DNA from: Candidatus Elulimicrobium sp.
GTDB taxonomy: Bacteria; Patescibacteriota; Minisyncoccia; Moranbacterales; UBA9337
Reading direction: 5' to 3'
DNA: 41,128 nucleotides
Assembly (NCBI GenBank): GCA_020722485.1
Contig: DYKS01000002.1
Span: forward strand, 1-41,128
Part shown: positions 6,110-30,187 of the stretch, in pieces
Layout: each line of letters opens with the position of its first letter
Numbering within the stretch: position 1 is the first letter of the stretch
Translations under genes and position numbers: made by a program
The notes under the pieces: generated by a model
Told to the model about the DNA's origin: nothing
What the model saw: the letters and a program-made list of their open reading frames with translations, nothing else
Database searches by the model: none

Positions 6110-6184
6110 TGGTAGCCCGTAGGGGAATCGGACCCCTGTTGCCAGGATGAAAACCTGGTGTCCTAACCATTAGACGAACGGGCC
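6110..6184 (-). tRNA. tRNA-Glu (anticodon UUC), CCA encoded
   Basis: Hand-folded cloverleaf: acceptor GGCCCGT/ACGGGCT, anticodon stem CCAGG/CCTGG, loop TTTTCAT, T stem AGGGG/CCCCT, 3' ACCA. 75 nt. Confidence 0.9.
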
Positions 6185-6470: not shown

Positions 6471-6554
6471 AATTGAAATTGGATGAATAAATATTGACTT
6501 TATTCAGAGTTCAATATTACTATTAAAAACAAATACTAACAAGTGGAAAATACG

Positions 6555-7715
6555 ATGATTATTTTAGCCATAGAAACTTCTTGCGATGAAACGGCGACTG
6601 CTCTGCTGAAAGCTGAAAATAAAAAAATGGCGTTGCTTTCTAATATCGTTTCTTCTCAAATAAAATTACATGCCCGTTGGGGCGGTGTAGTTCCCAACTT
6701 GGCGGCGCGGGAACATTTAAAAAATATTCAACCAGTAATTACTCGGGCTTTTCGCAACGCCAAAATAAATCCTGATCAAATTGATCTCATCGCCGTTACC
6801 AATGGTCCGGGACTAATTCCATCGCTTCTCATCGGAACCGCCGCCGCTCAAACCCTTTCTTTCCTTTGGAAAAAACCGCTTATTGGCATTCACCATATTG
6901 AAGGACACATTTACGCCAATTTTATTAAAGATGAAACTGGCGTAAATCTCAAATCTCAATTTTCAATTTCTAAAAAAATTTATAACTCCGACATAAAATT
7001 TCCGATTCTATGCCTCGTTGTTTCCGGCGGACACACGCAATTGGTTTTAATGAAAAAACATTTGCGCTATGAAATAATCGGGCAAACTTTGGATGATGCC
7101 GCCGGAGAAGCTTTTGACAAAGTGGCGCGTATCTTGGGATTAAGTTATCCGGGAGGACCAGCTATCGCGGCTAAAGCGGCAAAATTTAAAAAATTAAATT
7201 TTATTAAAAATTCAAAATTAAAAATCCAAAATTATATTTCTCTCCCCCGCCCAATGATAAATTCCGGCGATTTTAATTTTTCTTTTTCCGGATTAAAAAC
7301 CGCTGTCTTGTATAAAGTCAAAGAATTTCAGAAACTTCTTTCCGAAAAAAAATTGTCATCCGATGACTACGATTTTCTAATTACCGGCATTGCCTCCGAA
7401 TTTCAACAAGCAGTTATTGATGTTTTAGTTTCTAAAACAATAAAATCCGCCACTAAATATCAAGTTAAAACAATTATGTTGGCTGGCGGCGTTAGCGCCA
7501 ATCAAGAACTGCGAAAGCAAATGAATTTAAAGATAAAAAATAATCTTTCTGATTCAAAATTTATAACTCCAAATCCTAAATTTTGTATTGATAACGCCGC
7601 GATGATCGCTTCCGCCGCTTATTTTCGTTGGAAAAATATGAGTTCGGCGCAAAGAAAGAAAACATTTCAAAATTGGAAACATCTTTCAACCGACGCCAAT
7701 TTGAAACTTTCCTAA
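6555..7715 (+). CDS. tsaD: tRNA N6-adenosine threonylcarbamoyltransferase TsaD
   Basis: Motifs ILAIETSCDETA, GVVPNLAAREH, HHIEGH, VSGGHTQL, DDAAGEAFDKVAR and GGPAI. The ATG at 6555 is preferred over the GTG at 6543. Confidence 0.9.
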   Translation: MIILAIETSCDETATALLKAENKKMALLSNIVSSQIKLHARWGGVVPNLAAREHLKNIQPVITRAFRNAKINPDQIDLIAVTNGPGLIPSLLIGTAAAQTLSFLWKKPLIGIHHIEGHIYANFIKDETGVNLKSQFSISKKIYNSDIKFPILCLVVSGGHTQLVLMKKHLRYEIIGQTLDDAAGEAFDKVARILGLSYPGGPAIAAKAAKFKKLNFIKNSKLKIQNYISLPRPMINSGDFNFSFSGLKTAVLYKVKEFQKLLSEKKLSSDDYDFLITGIASEFQQAVIDVLVSKTIKSATKYQVKTIMLAGGVSANQELRKQMNLKIKNNLSDSKFITPNPKFCIDNAAMIASAAYFRWKNMSSAQRKKTFQNWKHLSTDANLKLS

Positions 7716-13664: not shown

Positions 13665-13736
13665 GCCCCCGTAGTTCAATGGATAGAACACCAGCCTTCT
13701 AAGCTGGATATCTAGGTTCGATTCCTAGCGGGGGCA
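13665..13736 (+). tRNA. tRNA-Arg (anticodon UCU), CCA not encoded
   Basis: Hand-folded: acceptor GCCCCCG/CGGGGGC, anticodon stem CCAGC/GCTGG, loop CTTCTAA, T arm CTAGG-TTCGATT-CCTAG, discriminator A. It lies 3 nt after tRNA-Lys. Confidence 0.9.
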
Positions 13737-13939
13737 CTAAGAATTTTACTTTTTAATCTTTTTGAAATTATTTAGCAAACGCATCTATACGTCACCCATT
13801 AACAACTTTACAACTTGTCGCGTAAACGCAAATACTAAAAAAATCAAAATTCCTTAAAGTTTTTATACAATAAAAAATTATTTCGCTTTTTTGTTTTTGG
13901 CTTTCTTTTATCGTTAATTTAAAAAACCAAAAAATATTA

Positions 13940-19275: not shown

Positions 19276-20115
19276 TCAAAAAAAGTATACCCCAACAATT
19301 ACCGCCGCCAATAAAAATCGATACCAAAAAAATATTTTATAACCAACTTTTTCCACAAATTTAAGCAAATATTTTATCGCCAAATATCCGCTCAATCCCG
19401 AGAAAAAAATTCCCGCCAGCATCGGCACGTTAAAATTAAAAACTAAATCTTTTATTTTCAAAATACTAGCGCCTAAAACAATCGGCGTCAAAAGCAAAAA
19501 AGAAAAACGCGCCGCGCTTACTCTATCTAATTGGCGAAAAAGCCCAGCGGTAATAGTAATTCCCGATCGAGATGTGCCCGGCACAATCGCCAGCGCTTGC
19601 GCCAAGCCAATAAAAATTCCGTCTCTAAATTTAATATCTTTTAAATGGCGACCGTTTGATTTTTCTGTTACATTTTTTTGACTATTTGTTTTTTGATCTG
19701 CCCAATAAAGAACAGCTCCCCAAAAAAACAAATTAAACGCCACCAATAATGGATGACGAAAAATAGTTGCCGCTAAATCTTCCAAAAACAATCCAGCTAA
19801 AACTCCCGGAATAGTCGCCGCCGCCAAAATCCATAAAGTATTATTCATATAGCGCGAATCACTAAATATTTCTTTATTTTCTTTATGCTTCAAATTGAGC
19901 GCCGACAATTTCATGATTATTATCCAATCGCGATAAAAGTATGTTACTACCGCCAACAATGTTCCAAAATGAAGCGCCACATCAAAAGAAAGTCCCGGAT
20001 CTTTGAAATTAAACAGCCACGGGAAAATAACCAAATGCCCTGATGAAGAAATCGGAAGAAATTCGCTTATTCCTTGAATGACTCCTAAAATTATTGCCTG
20101 AAAAATATCCGCCAT
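19276..20115 (-). CDS. uppP: Undecaprenyl-diphosphate phosphatase UppP (BacA)
   Basis: GVIQGISEFLPISSSGH and PGTSRSGITI motifs, polytopic. The ATG at 20115 is preferred; the track ORF begins at a TTG at 20130. Confidence 0.9.
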   Translation of the reverse strand: MADIFQAIILGVIQGISEFLPISSSGHLVIFPWLFNFKDPGLSFDVALHFGTLLAVVTYFYRDWIIIMKLSALNLKHKENKEIFSDSRYMNNTLWILAAATIPGVLAGLFLEDLAATIFRHPLLVAFNLFFWGAVLYWADQKTNSQKNVTEKSNGRHLKDIKFRDGIFIGLAQALAIVPGTSRSGITITAGLFRQLDRVSAARFSFLLLTPIVLGASILKIKDLVFNFNVPMLAGIFFSGLSGYLAIKYLLKFVEKVGYKIFFWYRFLLAAVIVGVYFF

Positions 20116-20116
20116 A

Positions 20117-20815
20117 TTATTTTTTCCCAATAAAAATTATGTTTCTGCCGTTGATTATAGCACATTTTTCCGTTTTAAAACCCGCTTTATGAAATAATTT
20201 TTCTAATCCCTTCCGAGTAAAAGCATGATGATAACGAACAAATTTTCTTTTTTCATTATCGGTAAACCCGATATAACAATCGTTCCAATCCAAATCGCTT
20301 TTTCTGATAATTTTATTTTTCCAATTTTCCAAAATATTTTTCCAATATTTTTTTTGAAATAAATTCCAAACAGACACAATGATATAACCATCGGGTTTGA
20401 CGACGTGAAATAATTCCCGCGCCATTTTTCTTCTCAAATCTTCGCTTGGTAAATGATGAAAAACCGCCAGAGCATACACTACATTGAAATAATCTTCCGA
20501 AAATGGTAAACTGGCTTGACCCGAGTTGATTTTTAAAAATTTAAAATTATCGGCGGTATACCTCCTTTTGGCTAAATCAATAAGTTTCGCCGAAAAATCC
20601 ACTCCTATATAATTTATGTTTTTTTCAAGAAAAAGCTCCGCCAATCGGCCGTTACCGCAACCATAATCTAAAATCCGATCGTTTTCTCGCGCGTAATTTT
20701 TTATAAATTCTAAATCAGACCAAAAATTTTTCCGAGTTTGAGAAAATTTTTCCGCGATTAAATCATAACCCCTTTCAGTCTCTTTTAAAATTTTTTTCAC
20801 CGTTTCTTTTTTCAT
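20117..20815 (-). CDS. Class I SAM-dependent methyltransferase with Trm9/ALKBH8-MTase-like motifs
   Basis: 232 aa. Y..IA.KFSQTRKNFW (compare yeast Trm9 Y..IA.HFSQTRYKPW, recalled from memory), motif I ILDYGCGNG, AVFHHL..EDLRR, SVWN and RYHHAF.RKGLEKL (compare Trm9 RYYHLYREGEL). Divergent from the Elp3 homologue across 30 bp. Confidence 0.65.
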   Translation of the reverse strand: MKKETVKKILKETERGYDLIAEKFSQTRKNFWSDLEFIKNYARENDRILDYGCGNGRLAELFLEKNINYIGVDFSAKLIDLAKRRYTADNFKFLKINSGQASLPFSEDYFNVVYALAVFHHLPSEDLRRKMARELFHVVKPDGYIIVSVWNLFQKKYWKNILENWKNKIIRKSDLDWNDCYIGFTDNEKRKFVRYHHAFTRKGLEKLFHKAGFKTEKCAIINGRNIIFIGKK

Positions 20816-20845
20816 AAAACAAGTTTAGGATGACATTATAATATT

Positions 20846-22501
20846 ATGAATCAAAATTTACACGAAAATTTAATCAAATCAGCCACCCAAACCGCTTTTT
20901 CTCATCCTAGCAAATTTTTGAAATTTAAGAAACAATTTTGTTCTCGAGCAAAAATCCCCCAGCCCACCAATGCCAACCTGCGCCAGCTTTACGAAAAAAT
21001 GGTGCGAGAGAAAAAAATTAAAAGAAACTTTAATTTAGAAAAAGCGATGCTCGCACATAGCGCGCGCACCCAATCTGGCGTGGCAATCATAGCCGTTCTC
21101 ACTAAACCTTATGCTTGTCCCGGCCAGTGCGTTTTCTGTCCAACAGAAAAAAATATACCCAAAAGTTATCTTCCTAATGAACCAGCGGTGATGCGCGCTG
21201 TAATGAACAAATTTAATCCTTATCATCAAGTTCAATCTCGCATCAAAGCGTTAGAACTTAATGGACATAATACTGATAAAATTGAATTGATTGTAATGGG
21301 GGGAACTTTCTCTTATTTTCCGAAACATTATCAAAAATGGTTCATCGCTGAATGTTTCCGCGCGTGCAATGAATACAAAAAATCAAAAAATACCAACGCT
21401 AAAACAACATTGGAAAAAGAACAAAAAAGAAATGAGAATTCCAAACATAGAATTGTGGGATTAACGCTGGAAACTCGTCCCGATTACATTGACGAAAAGG
21501 AAATTTTAAATTTCAGAAAATTAGGTTGCACACGAGTAGAATTAGGAGTACAAACAATTTTTGACGATATTTTAAAGTTAAATAAACGTGGTCATAAAGT
21601 TTCAGCAACCATTCGCGCAACTCGTCTGCTCAAAGACGCCGGTTTTAAAATTAATTATCACTTGATGCCCGGCCTTTACGGCAGCAACCGTCAAAAAGAT
21701 TATGAAATGTTCGCGCGTCTTTTTTCGGATTCTAACTTCCAACCGGATATGCTAAAAATTTACCCGACGCTGGTAATTAAAAATTCTCAACTTTACCGCT
21801 TATGGAAAAAAGGCGCTTATCAACCACTTACCGACCGCGATTTTGAAAATTTAATCATCAAGGTAAAAAACGAAATCATCCCCCCTTATATTCGCATTCA
21901 AAGATTAGTGCGGGACGTGCCTTTACCTTCTATCGAAGCCGGACCAAAAATCTCCAACTTGCGACAAATTATTGCCGCCAAAACTCATTGTCAATGCATT
22001 CGTTGTCGAGAAGTAAAAGAAACATATAAATCTGACAATAAAATTATTTTAGATAGAATAGACTACAACGGATCAGGCGGAAAAGAAATTTTTTTACAAT
22101 TTATAGATTCCCCGTCTGCTTCCAAAAAAGAAACTGATAATAAAAGAAATAAATTATACGCGCTTTTGCGATTGAGAATTCCCTCTAGTTTAATTTCTTC
22201 CTCTTCTCAAAAAAAAGAACAAAAAAATACTTTGTATGAAAAAATTCCTGTGTTAAAAAATGCCGCCCTTATTCGTGAAGTCCATACTTTCGGAAAACTA
22301 ATTCCAATCGGAAAAAAAGAAAAAAAATCCCCGCAACACATTGGATTAGGAAAGAAACTTATTCAAGAAGCGGAAAAAATTGCTCGTGAAGAATTTGGCA
22401 TTTCCAAAATCGCCGTTATTTCCGGAGTAGGTGTTCGAAATTATTATCGTAAACTGGGATATAGACTAAAAGATAATTATATGGTAAAAAAGATACGATA
22501 A
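20846..22501 (+). CDS. elp3: Elp3-family radical-SAM / GNAT acetyltransferase (tRNA U34 carboxymethylation enzyme homologue)
   Basis: 551 aa. Radical-SAM cluster CPGQCVFCP, Elp3-specific SYLPNEPAVMRA...NPY.Q...R...L...GH..DKIELIVMGGTF, and C-terminal GNAT QHIGLGKKL..EAE.IA......KIAVISGVGVRNYYRKLGY. Confidence 0.9.
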   Translation: MNQNLHENLIKSATQTAFSHPSKFLKFKKQFCSRAKIPQPTNANLRQLYEKMVREKKIKRNFNLEKAMLAHSARTQSGVAIIAVLTKPYACPGQCVFCPTEKNIPKSYLPNEPAVMRAVMNKFNPYHQVQSRIKALELNGHNTDKIELIVMGGTFSYFPKHYQKWFIAECFRACNEYKKSKNTNAKTTLEKEQKRNENSKHRIVGLTLETRPDYIDEKEILNFRKLGCTRVELGVQTIFDDILKLNKRGHKVSATIRATRLLKDAGFKINYHLMPGLYGSNRQKDYEMFARLFSDSNFQPDMLKIYPTLVIKNSQLYRLWKKGAYQPLTDRDFENLIIKVKNEIIPPYIRIQRLVRDVPLPSIEAGPKISNLRQIIAAKTHCQCIRCREVKETYKSDNKIILDRIDYNGSGGKEIFLQFIDSPSASKKETDNKRNKLYALLRLRIPSSLISSSSQKKEQKNTLYEKIPVLKNAALIREVHTFGKLIPIGKKEKKSPQHIGLGKKLIQEAEKIAREEFGISKIAVISGVGVRNYYRKLGYRLKDNYMVKKIR

Positions 22502-22503
22502 TT

Positions 22504-22774
22504 TATTAAATTTTACAGCGCTATTTACATCTTTGGCAATTATTTCTATTTGTTTTTTATGTCATTCCCGCGTTTTTTATATCATTCCTGCGAAAGCGAG
22601 AATCCAGTTTTTCTTTTTTATCACATATAAATTTCAAATAAATTTTCTGCTAGCGCTCTAAAATTTTCCGCAATGATAAATATGAAAATTCAAAAATTTA
22701 GAGCCTCTTTTTTGATTAAGATAATTTCCCGAATTTCTTTTATTTCTCTTTAATATTGAATAATCTCAATTAAG
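22504..22774 (-). mobile_element. MITE-like intergenic repeat, copy C (long form, right arm degenerate)
   Basis: ttacagcgctatttacatctttggcaattatttc..tgtcattcccgcg..atcattcctgcgaaagcgagaatccag...gcgctctaaaattttccgcaatgataaata is collinear with copy A. The right boundary is uncertain. Confidence 0.5.
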
Positions 22775-22861
22775 TTTTCTGGCATCCATATTTTTTTCTT
22801 TCCCATTCTTAACCAAGTTTTAATTTGTTCCCTTCCATAAAGAGTCAATGATTTTTCTTTT

Positions 22862-22930
22862 AGCATACTTTGCGTTGTTTAAAAGTTAACACTTCAGCAT
22901 ATCAAAAAAGGGGCTTTTATGTTTGAATAG
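22862..22930 (+). repeat. Promoter-proximal repeat R1 (core AAAAAGGGGCTTTtATGTTTGAATAG)
   Basis: Near-identical to the reverse complement of 36211-36238, with collinear flanking blocks (GCATACT, GCGTT, TTAAC.CT). The core ends 37 nt upstream of a TGcTATAAT box that precedes yjbQ. Confidence 0.55.
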
Positions 22931-23009
22931 AGTTTTTGCCAAATCTATTTTTCTTTTTCAAAAAACTGCTATAATAAAAATTGTTTTCAAATTAAATTTT
23001 TAATTGTCA

Positions 23010-27777: not shown

Positions 27778-29208
27778 ATGGAACTTATGCTCCCGAAATA
27801 TCTTATCAAAACTTTTGGTTGCCAAATGAATTATAGCGATTCAGAAAGAATTGCCGCTTTTTTAGATTTCTTTGGTTTAAAAGAAGTAAAAGAGAAAAAA
27901 ACTGTTCAATTTTCTACTTCCAATTATTTAAAATCTTCAAAAGCGAAAAATTTAATAATTATTTTCAATACTTGCGGCGTGCGTCAAATGGCGGAAGATC
28001 GCGTGTATGGCCAAGTTCATAATTTGCGCAAAAACAATCCGCAAATCAAAATAATTTTAACCGGCTGTTTAGCACTCCGAGCGGACGTTCAAAAAAGATT
28101 AAAAGAGAAGGTAGATTTATTTTTTCCAATAAATCAACTACAACAACTGGAAAAGTGGCTTATTAAAAATTATCCCGAAATTGAAAATTTAAATTTAAAA
28201 AATTCTGTTTTTAAAAACCAAACTTTATCTCAAGAAAATATCTCTTATCTTTCTATTAAACCCAAATATTTTAATAAATTTTCAGCTTATGTTCCCATTA
28301 TGACCGGCTGTAATAATTTTTGTTCTTATTGTGTCGTTCCTTACGCGCGCGGAAGAGAAATTTCCCGTCCAGCAACGGAAATTTTGAAAGAAATTAAAGA
28401 TTTAATTAGAAAAAAATATCAACATATCATTTTATTGGGACAAAACGTCAATTCTTATACTGATGGAAAAAATAATTTCTCCGCTTTGTTAAAAAAAATA
28501 AACGCATTGCCGGGAAATTTTTGGTTAAGTTTTTTAAGCAATCATCCTAAAAATGTAACTGATGAAATGATTGAGACTGTCGCTAAAAGCGAAAAAGTTT
28601 GCGAATTTTTCCATTTGCCGATTCAGTCCGGCAATGACGAAATTTTAAGAAAAATGAATCGCCACTATACCGCCCAACAATATTTAAACTTAATAAATAA
28701 AATAAAAAAAGCTTATAAAAAATATAAACCGGACAAACTTTTTTCTTTAACCGGCGACATTATTGTCGGTTTTCCCGGAGAAACAAAAAAACAATTTTTA
28801 GATTCGGCGAAAATTATGCGTCAAGTAAAATATGATATGGTTTATTTTGGACAATTTTCTCCTCGCCCCGGCACCGTCGCTTGGAAAATGAAAGACAATG
28901 TCTCTAAAAAAGAAAAAAAACAACGAGAAAAATTTCTCAATGAAATTCTCAAAGAAACCTCTTTAAAAAATAACCAAAAGTACGTCGGAAAAATACTGGA
29001 AGTTTTACTAGAAAAAAAAGAAGGAAATTTTTATTTTGGAAAAACCCGCACAATGAAAAATGTAAAAGTTATAGCAACAAACAAAAAGAATTTAATCGGA
29101 AAAATAATTCTAGTAAAAATAACGCGCGCGCATATTTGGAATTTAGAAGGAAAAATCGTTTCAAAAACTAATAACATTCACCGACAACCAAATGAAAAAA
29201 AAGAATAA
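27778..29208 (+). CDS. miaB: tRNA (i6A37) methylthiotransferase MiaB-type radical-SAM enzyme
   Basis: UPF0004 domain TFGCQMNYSDSE, radical-SAM CNNFCSYCVVP and a C-terminal TRAM domain. Confidence 0.85.
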   Translation: MELMLPKYLIKTFGCQMNYSDSERIAAFLDFFGLKEVKEKKTVQFSTSNYLKSSKAKNLIIIFNTCGVRQMAEDRVYGQVHNLRKNNPQIKIILTGCLALRADVQKRLKEKVDLFFPINQLQQLEKWLIKNYPEIENLNLKNSVFKNQTLSQENISYLSIKPKYFNKFSAYVPIMTGCNNFCSYCVVPYARGREISRPATEILKEIKDLIRKKYQHIILLGQNVNSYTDGKNNFSALLKKINALPGNFWLSFLSNHPKNVTDEMIETVAKSEKVCEFFHLPIQSGNDEILRKMNRHYTAQQYLNLINKIKKAYKKYKPDKLFSLTGDIIVGFPGETKKQFLDSAKIMRQVKYDMVYFGQFSPRPGTVAWKMKDNVSKKEKKQREKFLNEILKETSLKNNQKYVGKILEVLLEKKEGNFYFGKTRTMKNVKVIATNKKNLIGKIILVKITRAHIWNLEGKIVSKTNNIHRQPNEKKE

Positions 29209-30187
29209 ACTCAAAGAGCAACCTACTAATAAAATCCTCGTTATTCTAGGACCCACTGCTTCTGGAAAATCGGATTTAGCAATTCAATTAGCGCGCGAAT
29301 TCGAAGGAGAAATCATTTCCGCCGATTCCCGACAAGTATATCGAGGAATGGATATTGGCTCGGGAAAAGTAACGCGCGATTCTTTTTCTCCGCGAATAAA
29401 TTCAGAAACAAAACCGCTTCCCAAAAACAAAAAAATAATTCCTTATTGGAGCGAAGGCATCCCTCATTATCTCATTGACATCGTTAATCCTAAAACAAAA
29501 TATAACGCCGCTAAATTTAAAAAAGACGCCGAAAAAATTATAAAGTATATTCTTTCACGCGGGAAAATTCCCATTATCTGCGGCGGTACTGGTTTCTGGA
29601 TTAAAACCATTGTGGATAATATTTCTTTTCCGAATGTTAAACCAGATTGGAAATTACGCAATCAATTGCGCGACAAAAGCGCCGCTGAATTATTCAAAAA
29701 ATTAAAAGAACTTGATCGCGAACGCGCTAAAACTATTGATCCTAAAAATAAAGTTCGTTTAATTCGCGCTATTGAAATCTGCCAATCAATCGGCAAAGTT
29801 CCTCCTGTTTATCATATTTCAGGCGGCGCGTGTTATCAATTTATTCAAATCGGGATTGATCGACCAAAAGAAGAATTAAATTTAAAAATTAAAAAAAGAT
29901 TAGAAGAAAGATTTAAGCAAGGAATGATTGAAGAAGTAAAAAAATTACACAAAGAAAAGAAAGCGAGTTGGAAAAGGTTGGAAGAGTTTGGATTGGAATA
30001 TCGTTGGATCGCTCGTTTCTTGCAAGAAAAAATATCAGAAAAAGAAATGAAAGAAAATCTTTATCAAGCTATTTGCGCTTACGCTAAACGGCAGAGAACT
30101 TGGTTTAAAAAAGACCAAAGAATAATATGGTTAAAAGATTATTCAGAGATTAAAAAAACGATAAAAAATTTTTTAAAAGAAAAATAA
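29192..30187 (+). CDS. miaA: tRNA dimethylallyltransferase MiaA
   Basis: GPTASGKSDLAI.LA...GEIISADSRQVYRGMDIGSGK, YA.RQ.TWF. 17-nt overlap with miaB. Confidence 0.9.
   Translation: MKKKNKLKEQPTNKILVILGPTASGKSDLAIQLAREFEGEIISADSRQVYRGMDIGSGKVTRDSFSPRINSETKPLPKNKKIIPYWSEGIPHYLIDIVNPKTKYNAAKFKKDAEKIIKYILSRGKIPIICGGTGFWIKTIVDNISFPNVKPDWKLRNQLRDKSAAELFKKLKELDRERAKTIDPKNKVRLIRAIEICQSIGKVPPVYHISGGACYQFIQIGIDRPKEELNLKIKKRLEERFKQGMIEEVKKLHKEKKASWKRLEEFGLEYRWIARFLQEKISEKEMKENLYQAICAYAKRQRTWFKKDQRIIWLKDYSEIKKTIKNFLKEK

Follow-up and report, generated by a model that had tools for sequence, protein, structure and literature searches.

Does a bacterial genome encode the archaeal and eukaryotic way of modifying the wobble uridine of tRNA? 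The question is raised by two neighbouring genes in a 41,128-nucleotide stretch from Candidatus Elulimicrobium sp., a member of the Patescibacteriota (GenBank assembly GCA_020722485.1, contig DYKS01000002.1, positions 1 to 41,128 of the forward strand), hereafter called the window. One of them encodes a homologue of Elp3, and the other encodes a class I S-adenosylmethionine (SAM) dependent methyltransferase. The methyl ester 5-methoxycarbonylmethyluridine at tRNA position 34 (mcm5U34) has so far been documented only in eukaryotes and archaea. In most bacteria the C5-substituted uridines of this position (xm5U34) are made by MnmE/MnmG (2020 review of the Elp3 structural field; MnmL preprint). 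We consider it likely that the gene pair of the window is a self-contained module of the archaeal and eukaryotic type, in which a stand-alone Elp3 and a Trm9-family enzyme would make 5-carboxymethyluridine (cm5U) and convert it to mcm5U at position 34.

The two genes are arranged head to head with their start codons back to back, the open reading frame (ORF) of 232 amino acids (aa) on the minus strand and that of 551 aa on the plus strand. The first-pass annotation of this DNA had given their coordinates, lengths and strands, a divergent spacing of 30 bp, and a number of peptide blocks; both ORFs were found at exactly these positions, the spacing was measured as 30 bp, and each quoted block was located in the translations.

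20117..20815, minus strand: Trm9-family SAM-dependent methyltransferase, 232 aa, predicted tRNA cm5U34 carboxyl O-methyltransferase (hhalign, profile model and Foldseek)
20816..20845, no strand: divergent intergenic spacer, 30 bp between the two start codons
20846..22501, plus strand: Elp3, radical-SAM and GNAT/lysine acetyltransferase (KAT) predicted tRNA U34 carboxymethylase, 551 aa (TIGR01211, Pfam and PDB comparisons)

Judged by family models and domain content, the product of the 551-aa ORF is a genuine Elp3. It scored 550.8 bits with the NCBIfam model TIGR01211 (ELP3, cutoff 350), its residues 23-550 corresponding to positions 16-522 of the 522 in the model. Pfam detected Radical_SAM, Radical_SAM_C and GNAT domains, with Acetyltransf_1 at 21.2 bits for a cutoff of 20.7. 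Against PDB the archaeal MinElp3 was the best match (402.6 bits), followed by the Dehalococcoides DmcElp3 (387.7 bits) and the eukaryotic Elp3 chains (about 330 bits). The protein carries the blocks CPGQCVFCP (residues 91-99), SYLPNEPAVMRA (107-118), IVMGGTF (149-155) and QHIGLG (497-502), of which the last is presumably the acetyl-CoA-binding motif of the GNAT domain, of the Q/RxxGxG type.

20846..21061, plus strand: basic N-terminal extension, residues 1-72, with 15 K/R versus 4 D/E (composition)
21116..21139, plus strand: radical-SAM [4Fe-4S] motif C91-x3-C95-x2-C98 (CPGQCVFC), aligning with CPHGKCIFCP of MinElp3
21989..22006, plus strand: prokaryote-type Cys cluster CQCIRC, residues 382-387, aligning with CRCIRC of MinElp3
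22334..22351, plus strand: KAT-domain motif QHIGLG, residues 497-502, aligning with QHMGYG of MinElp3

Residues 1-72 lie outside the alignments to solved Elp3 chains. The basic N-terminus of archaeal and eukaryotic Elp3 is required for tRNA binding and is absent from the poorly active Dehalococcoides Elp3 (Lin 2019); by position and charge only, the extension of the window Elp3 may be equivalent to that tRNA-binding N-terminus.

For the methyltransferase, the first-pass annotation had gone beyond a generic Methyltransf_11/25 assignment and proposed a specific likeness to Trm9, comparing several blocks with blocks of yeast Trm9. The blocks of the window protein are YDLIAEKFSQTRKNFW (residues 17-32), DYGCGNG (50-56), ALAVFHHLPSEDLRR, SVWN (148-151) and RYHHAFTRKGLEKL (194-207). 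The yeast blocks agree with the fungal Trm9 consensus of 28 sequences (VYEQIASHFSSTRYKPW / SIAVIHH / YVWALEQ / RYYHLY) and with the residue numbering of Létoquart 2015. Three alignments were built: A1, comprising 42 Moranbacteria orthologues of the window methyltransferase; A2, the fungal Trm9 sequences behind this consensus, collected with a Yarrowia Trm9 fragment as bait; and A3, comprising divergent representatives of the methyltransferase family. Counts for the wider family refer to 148 sequences, namely 147 distant representatives and the window protein.

Comparison of A1 with A2 by hhalign gave a probability of 99.8% and an E value of 1.7e-27 over 201 columns, pairing window residues 15-231 with Trm9 residues 27-228. 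A profile hidden Markov model (HMM) of fungal Trm9, calibrated on PDB, gave 334.8 bits to its own structure and 41 bits to the next-best methyltransferase; the window protein reached 78.8 bits, while scores lay at 63-95 bits for the 42 Moranbacteria orthologues and rose to as much as 116 bits in the wider family. Taking the HMM comparisons in both directions, scores were 62-95 bits, as against 41-54 bits for the best non-Trm9 methyltransferases of PDB. When the family profile was searched against PDB, Yarrowia Trm9 (YlTrm9, 5cm2_Z) came first with 54.7 bits, in an alignment spanning the protein from the TR..W block to RYxH. The AlphaFold2 model of the methyltransferase is confident (predicted local distance difference test score, pLDDT, 92.5), and in the Foldseek search 5cm2_Z ranked second, its TMt (0.82) and root-mean-square deviation (3.0 Å) being the best among the top matches. 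The profile alignment, the HMM scores and the family-profile search support the proposal that the 232-aa methyltransferase belongs with Trm9 and is not merely a generic class I enzyme.

Orthologues of the window methyltransferase number in the hundreds, with 47-63% identity, and an exhaustive HMM search returned 636 cluster representatives at E ≤ 1e-30, which form a wider family of proteins of about 230 aa. The source annotations of this family are mixed: automated pipelines of the IMG/KEGG type name some proteins of the candidate phyla radiation (CPR) TRM9/ALKBH8 and others UbiE.

The most discriminating evidence for a Trm9-type identity is the conservation of the predicted active site. In mutagenesis of Saccharomyces cerevisiae Trm9 (ScTrm9), D72A, H116A, W145A and W168A were inactive, and R29A, R241A, Y243A and N271A each lost at least 10-fold activity, R29A about 20-fold (Létoquart 2015). 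The model of the same work brings H115 and Y18 into contact with O4 of U34 and the cm5 carboxylate; R29 was proposed to position the carboxylate of cm5U, W145 to stack on U34, and N271 (N222 in the Yarrowia enzyme) to read O2/N3 of the uracil. Eight of these ten residues are identical in the window protein, where ScTrm9 Y18, R29, D72, H115, H116, W145, R241 and N271 correspond to Y17, R28, D50, H120, H121, W150, R194 and N225.

20720..20767, minus strand: N-terminal substrate-binding helix motif YDLIAEKFSQTRKNFW, with Y17 and R28 (hhalign register)
20648..20668, minus strand: SAM-binding motif I DYGCGNG, with D50 equivalent to ScTrm9 D72 (alignments)
20447..20467, minus strand: AVFHHLP motif, with H120 and H121 equivalent to ScTrm9 H115 and H116 (alignments)
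20363..20374, minus strand: SVWN, with W150 equivalent to ScTrm9 W145 (alignments)
20225..20236, minus strand: RYHH, with R194 equivalent to ScTrm9 R241, and H196 in place of Y243 (alignments)
20141..20143, minus strand: N225, equivalent to ScTrm9 N271 and Yarrowia N222 (hhalign register)

The Trm9-equivalent residues are invariant or nearly so in the 42 orthologues of A1, H120, H121 and N225 being fully invariant. Among the 148 sequences of the wider family, Y17 is kept in 140, R28 in 146, D50 in 146, H120 in 136, H121 in 143, W150 in 148, R194 in 138 and N225 in 141. Since the Trm9-like blocks persist in this way through the 42 orthologues and the 147 more distant representatives, they are not a chance resemblance, and their conservation in orthologues, on which the proposal of the first-pass annotation partly depended, was confirmed. 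The signature Y-R-D-H-H-W-R-x-H was also found in nearly all of 80 divergent metagenomic homologues, even in those with a background score by the Trm9 HMM. Because the conserved residues lie outside the generic SAM motifs and are those proposed in Trm9 to hold the carboxylate and the uracil, we regard the enzyme as a probable carboxyl methyltransferase acting on C5-carboxymethyl uridine.

The linkage of the two genes was followed through other genomes. A scan of GTDB with the family alignment, using one genome per species, found 204 relatives, and the loci of 80 of them were examined. Their record titles are nearly all Moraniibacteriota, Parcubacteria, Patescibacteria or uninformative labels. 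Elp3 lies immediately upstream of the methyltransferase and divergent from it in 73 of the 80 Moranbacteria loci, or 73 of the 77 that are informative. Where at least 5 kb was available on both sides, Elp3 was adjacent in 36/38 loci, and the other neighbours of the window in at most 17/38 (UppP 16, FolD 9); conservation of the pair therefore goes far beyond background synteny. Of the 80 GTDB representative assemblies, about 20 are titled 'uncultured Bdellovibrionales' (for example L002, L006, L017 and L019), though the proteins are 55-61% identical to those of Moranbacteria and the synteny is shared; given both, these deposited records appear to be taxonomically mislabelled.

A second scan, of metagenome contigs searched with A3, provided the 80 divergent loci, with methyltransferases 26-49% identical to the bait. 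About 50 of them have Elp3 upstream and divergent in constant orientation, with Elp3 identity to the window enzyme falling to 34-40%. The same head-to-head pair, with gaps of 3-17 bp, was found by independent gene calls in Candidatus Staskawiczbacteria and Portnoybacteria, among plainly bacterial neighbours (UvrB, RuvA, Mur ligase and GreA). The adjacency seen in the window is therefore shared by Patescibacteria and by some other bacteria. Between the two starts the median distance is 35 bp for Moranbacteria (74 loci) and about 0 bp for the divergent set (53 loci), so that there is no room for independent intergenic promoters, and the near-zero spacer kept across very deep divergence indicates that the two genes were inherited together and are probably regulated together.

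Other genes near the pair are less constant. When the ORFs around the pair in 160 loci were clustered all against all, a comparison noisy from shadow ORFs, no universally conserved third gene emerged. A gene of about 131 aa follows Elp3 in 42/80 Moranbacteria loci (for example minus-strand 7883-8278 of L003) and appears NUDIX-like by reading of its sequence only; in the window no remnant of it was found, and Elp3 is followed by an AT-rich stretch of 502 bp (22502-23003) in which no ORF reaches 60 aa. In 37/80 Moranbacteria loci the pair has an RlmN-like radical-SAM gene in its vicinity. Very distant loci of high GC content (60-68%) look bacterial, with YfhO nearby, and in two of them a TrmB-type gene (Methyltransf_4, for 7-methylguanosine at tRNA position 46) follows the Elp3-linked methyltransferase (L149 5184-6260 and L157 7316-8368), which suggests a three-gene tRNA-modification cluster in that lineage.

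From these data a pathway of two steps may be proposed. In the first step, the stand-alone Elp3 would bind a tRNA containing U34, probably aided by its basic N-terminal extension; its KAT domain would hydrolyse acetyl-CoA, and by means of the radical-SAM 5'-deoxyadenosyl radical C5 of U34 would receive the acetate-derived unit, so that cm5U34 is formed. We infer this step from the strong orthology to biochemically characterised Elp3. In the second step, the Trm9-family enzyme would use SAM to methyl-esterify the cm5 carboxylate to mcm5U34, with R28 and H121 positioning the carboxylate, H120 and N225 reading the uracil, and W150 stacking on it, as homology and the conserved active-site residues suggest.

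A number of observations weigh against this pathway. On the question of METHYLTRANSFERASE being Trm9-like, Pfam yields generic class I domains only and no NCBIfam model reaches its cutoff; the two collections contain no curated Trm9 model to pass. In a single-sequence phmmer search, Yarrowia Trm9 (5cm2_Z) was only the fifth PDB match, and in the family-profile search its margin over 3sm3 was just about 1 bit. The same 3sm3, uncharacterised, took rank 1 in Foldseek, and many class I methyltransferases score alike; for these reasons the structure is consistent with Trm9 but alone not decisive. In the active site, ScTrm9 Y243 is replaced by His196 in the window protein and the Moranbacteria clade, a change which we grade as conservative, and the equivalent of ScTrm9 W168 is ambiguous, as two alignments disagree between W177 and W165. 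Seven Moranbacteria loci have no adjacent Elp3: three of them have less than 1 kb of upstream sequence and L041 has 37 bp, leaving L002, L009 and L034 as genuine exceptions, all Moranbacteria-type genomes with full 10-kb flanks. The metagenomic proteins with the best Trm9 HMM scores (120-132 bits) do not adjoin Elp3. Eukaryotic and haloarchaeal Trm9 require Trm112 for solubility and activity (Van Tran 2018; Létoquart 2015). Finally, the 2020 review found no direct evidence of 5-carboxymethyl-type uridines (xcm5U) in any bacterium, Dehalococcoides included.

Some details belong to these observations. The 3sm3 chain is Methanosarcina mazei Q8PUK2, an uncharacterised methyltransferase from structural genomics, which was the top Foldseek match and the second profile match; it has only 29.9 bits by the Trm9 HMM, so it is probably related to the family by fold and is no orthologue of Trm9. 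At L009 and L034 the place of Elp3 upstream of the methyltransferase is taken by an ORF of about 420-480 aa in the same direction. The metagenomic proteins with top Trm9 HMM scores, above those of the CPR family, are of about 207-231 aa (L124, L125, L128, L130, L131, L137 and L139), and the signature of five of these seven ends in RYY and not RYH.

The alternative that survives best, though we judge it unlikely, accepts that the methyltransferase acts on the Elp3 product at the wobble base and proposes that the end product is not plain mcm5U or that a partner encoded elsewhere is needed. The substrate may be another Elp3-derived intermediate, or the pathway may be longer, leading to 5-carbamoylmethyluridine (ncm5U), to a derivative like the methyl ester of 5-carboxyhydroxymethyluridine (mchm5U) or to a thiolated form; the partner may be a Trm112-like protein or Elp3 itself. 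Such an outcome would fit the replacement of a functionally important Tyr by H196 throughout the Moranbacteria clade, the quick turnover of the cm5U intermediate into other products in Haloferax volcanii (Van Tran 2018), and the accessory genes described above, that is the NUDIX-like gene after Elp3 in 42/80 loci, the common RlmN-like gene nearby and TrmB in the distant high-GC loci. However, conservation extends to every residue for which a role in holding carboxylate or uracil is proposed (R28, H120, H121, R194 and N225), no third gene is conserved in all lineages, and position 196 is most often Tyr, the Trm9 state, in the wider family (55/148), with His in Moranbacteria.

We consider it very improbable that the methyltransferase is a generic class I enzyme for a small molecule or another substrate, in the manner of UbiE/MenG, and that its place beside Elp3 has no functional meaning. 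The generic Pfam domains would allow such an enzyme, the best NCBIfam matches are CpaM, DVU_1556 and UbiE, and many source annotations read 'UbiE'; yet all three matches are far below cutoff, the adjacency to Elp3 is far above background synteny and spans very deep divergence, the residues that are specific to Trm9 and lie outside the SAM fold are kept, and by the Trm9 HMM the protein exceeds every PDB methyltransferase other than Trm9 by about 38 bits. To our knowledge, Patescibacteria are generally without quinone biosynthesis, which also counts against this assignment. The UbiE-like reading was rejected on model scores and domain content.

Still less credit can be given to a module of the MnmL/MnmM type, where an Elp3-related radical-SAM enzyme and an adjacent methyltransferase would turn the 5-carboxymethylaminomethyluridine (cmnm5U) made by MnmEG into 5-methylaminomethyluridine (mnm5U). 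The resemblance is real in the general arrangement, since MnmL (YtqA/YhcC) and MnmM of Bacillota are likewise an Elp3-related radical-SAM enzyme beside, or fused with, a SAM methyltransferase, both acting on the C5 side chain of U34. The MnmL/YtqA model TIGR01212 was the second-best NCBIfam match of the 551-aa protein, but it gave 81.5 bits for a cutoff of 180 and covered residues 177-363 only, whereas the Elp3 model was passed over the full length including the GNAT domain. MnmL is not known to have a GNAT domain, and an MnmL identity was rejected because of this domain and the partial match below cutoff. Unlike the proposed Elp3 pathway, MnmL works downstream of MnmEG on cmnm5U, and MnmM methylates an amine and not a carboxylate; no chain named MnmM was among the PDB matches of the methyltransferase, in which the carboxylate-directed Trm9 residues are present. 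In the MnmL preprint the authors kept only MnmL proteins of 225-400 aa in their own alignment.

A CmoM-like enzyme, converting uridine-5-oxyacetic acid (cmo5U34) to its methyl ester (mcmo5U34), is hardly credible and was rejected: besides the proposed reaction, this is the carboxyl methylation known at U34 in bacteria, with the same chemistry on the side chain and weak matches to the methyltransferase (NF008264, 25.4 bits; PDB 8joz, E 7.5e-5), but the score is far below the NF008264 cutoff of 366 and does not equal the match to Trm9, the gene beside it is that of Elp3, and there is no CmoA or CmoB among the annotated ORFs of the window.

Returning to the Elp3-Trm9 pathway, the first-pass annotation had seen no Trm112 beside the pair, and our scans were likewise empty. 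Regular expressions (two CxxC pairs; YcaR-like CPxC...GIP) and inspection by eye found no Trm112-like ORF among the small ORFs of the window, and the same expressions found none in 1.9 Mb of related loci, these scans being pattern-based and weak. There was no Trm112 fusion among unusually long family members and no Trm112 as a conserved neighbour. When the Trm112 interface was mapped by the hhalign register, two of six buried hydrophobic core residues were polar or charged in the CPR family: YlTrm9 V59 (I/V in fungi) is K/R/N, and F78 (F/Y in fungi) is D/E/N/K throughout the family. Of the polar hot spots of the contact, neither E100 nor R115 is conserved, and D117 is replaced by Asn in Moranbacteria, whereas most of the wider family has Asp there; F116 is retained, as is V102, the hydrophobic residue of β3. 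From the empty scans nearby and the two altered hydrophobic positions, it seems that the methyltransferase probably works without a Trm112 activator.

MnmE and MnmG of E. coli were compared by tblastn, with neighbouring universal genes as controls, with 1.9 Mb of sequence made up of the window and 164 related loci. MnmE gave one weak match (52 bits, 27% identity over 158 residues) and MnmG 0 matches, a zero that carries no information, since the controls GyrB, DnaA, DnaN, RecF and RsmG gave 0 as well. Independently of this search, as a tentative extension and in our estimate somewhat doubtful, we might speculate that in Patescibacteria and some other bacteria, including high-GC lineages, a self-sufficient Elp3 and a Trm112-independent Trm9 install mcm5U34 and might replace MnmE/MnmG, and that the head-to-head layout reflects obligate co-regulation or even physical coupling. 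MnmE/MnmG would be the functional analogue of the pair, with the same C5 target on U34 and a similar tRNA set, although the enzymes and chemistry are unrelated, a GTPase and a protein using flavin adenine dinucleotide (FAD) and folate adding there a glycine-derived cmnm5 group.

Among the known systems, the eukaryotic Trm9 proteins (yeast, Yarrowia 5CM2 and the methyltransferase domain of human ALKBH8) share with the window protein the class I fold, a size of about 230 aa, the eight of ten functional residues, an N-terminal Y..F(S)xTR..W helix, AVxHH, VW, RYxH and a C-terminal Asn. It differs from eukaryotic Trm9-Trm112 by an identity of only about 23-25%, by the change of Tyr243 to His, by the altered Trm112 contacts, by its bacterial host and by a gene divergent from Elp3. 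The archaeal system is similar in other respects. In H. volcanii, an archaeon with Elp3 only, HvoTrm9-Trm112 makes mcm5U in vivo (Van Tran 2018), and in Sulfolobus solfataricus the genes of Elp3 and Trm9 lie in one cluster (Grosjean 2008). Like H. volcanii (HVO_2888 and HVO_1032-Trm112), the window has a stand-alone Elp3 without Elp1/2/4-6 together with a Trm9 homologue; its Elp3 has the best PDB score with the archaeal MinElp3, and its genes are clustered as in S. solfataricus. In contrast, HvoTrm9 needs Trm112 for solubility and activity, and the window pair is bacterial with no Trm112 visible in the loci scanned. The Elp3 of Dehalococcoides mccartyi (5L7J/5L7L) is likewise bacterial and stand-alone, with the radical-SAM and KAT architecture and the prokaryote-type Cys cluster, but it is without the 72-residue basic N-terminal extension of the window Elp3 and has weak activity and weak tRNA binding.

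The window, which is the entire 41,128-bp contig recorded for these proteins, is AT-rich (about 34% GC) and contains housekeeping genes usual in bacteria: RecG, TsaD, valyl- and leucyl-tRNA synthetases (ValRS and LeuRS), FolD, UppP, MiaB, MiaA, GatB, ThyX, Mur ligase, FemAB and RuvA. The nearest relatives of Elp3 and the methyltransferase are proteins of metagenome-assembled genomes of Moranbacteria/Parcubacteria. A pattern scan for promoters and terminators around the gene pair gave matches at chance level, and no promoter or other regulatory element was assigned. The methyltransferase ORF overlaps the TTG start of the co-directional downstream UppP/BacA ORF (19276-20130) by 14 bp (20117-20130), which suggests that methyltransferase-uppP(-folD) is one transcription unit; among the close neighbours UppP comes next in conservation (16/38 loci).

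Other genes for the anticodon loop are also found. MiaB (27778-29208; UPF0004, Radical_SAM and TRAM) and MiaA (29192-30187; IPPT) overlap by 17 bp about 5 kb from the Elp3 pair, apparently as an operon for 2-methylthio-N6-isopentenyladenosine at position 37 (ms2i6A37), and TsaD, for N6-threonylcarbamoyladenosine at position 37 (t6A37), is at 6543-7715. With MiaB/MiaA, TsaD and the Elp3 pair on 41 kb, the contig is rich in anticodon-loop modification genes. Rfam matches in the window were four tRNAs only, and two of them are candidate substrates of the pair by inference only.

6110..6184, minus strand: tRNA-Glu(UUC) (ARAGORN and Rfam), candidate substrate
13665..13737, plus strand: tRNA-Arg(UCU) (ARAGORN and Rfam), candidate substrate

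Yeast tRNA-Arg(UCU) bears mcm5U. For tRNA-Glu(UUC), an xm5(s2)U modification of U34 is established in all domains (PMC5400242).

As to novelty, the 2020 review placed bacterial Elp3 in a single particular clade of anaerobic bacteria, Dehalococcoides, and a paper of 2026 states that 'numerous bacteria' encode Elp3 alone. A search of the literature on Elp3, Elongator, Trm9 or MnmG in Patescibacteria, Parcubacteria or the candidate phyla radiation found nothing relevant, and one on bacterial Elp3 and (m)cm5U methylation found no description of such a pair, within the limited literature searched. The earlier statement that the pairing is undescribed thus stands for bacteria, but not in general, since the Elp3-Trm9 cluster of S. 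solfataricus was reported in 2008 and some CPR proteins are already labelled TRM9/ALKBH8. What the window contains is a bacterial form, apparently without a partner, of a pathway known from archaea and eukaryotes, so that as a kind of system it is not new.

If confirmed, the pair would be the first evidence of an Elongator-type (m)cm5U34 modification made by bacteria. Hundreds of Patescibacteria species appear to have kept the two-step pathway, which is probably common in the lineage, and the Trm9 assignment would correct many 'UbiE' annotations of the methyltransferase family. The minimal enzyme pair, an Elp3 with a basic N-terminus and a Trm9 that may not need Trm112, would be useful for biochemistry and structures. 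The finding also touches the evolutionary question of whether archaea and CPR bacteria have the xcm5U pathway by common ancestry or by exchange with one another, and that of how ultra-small genomes decode split codon boxes.

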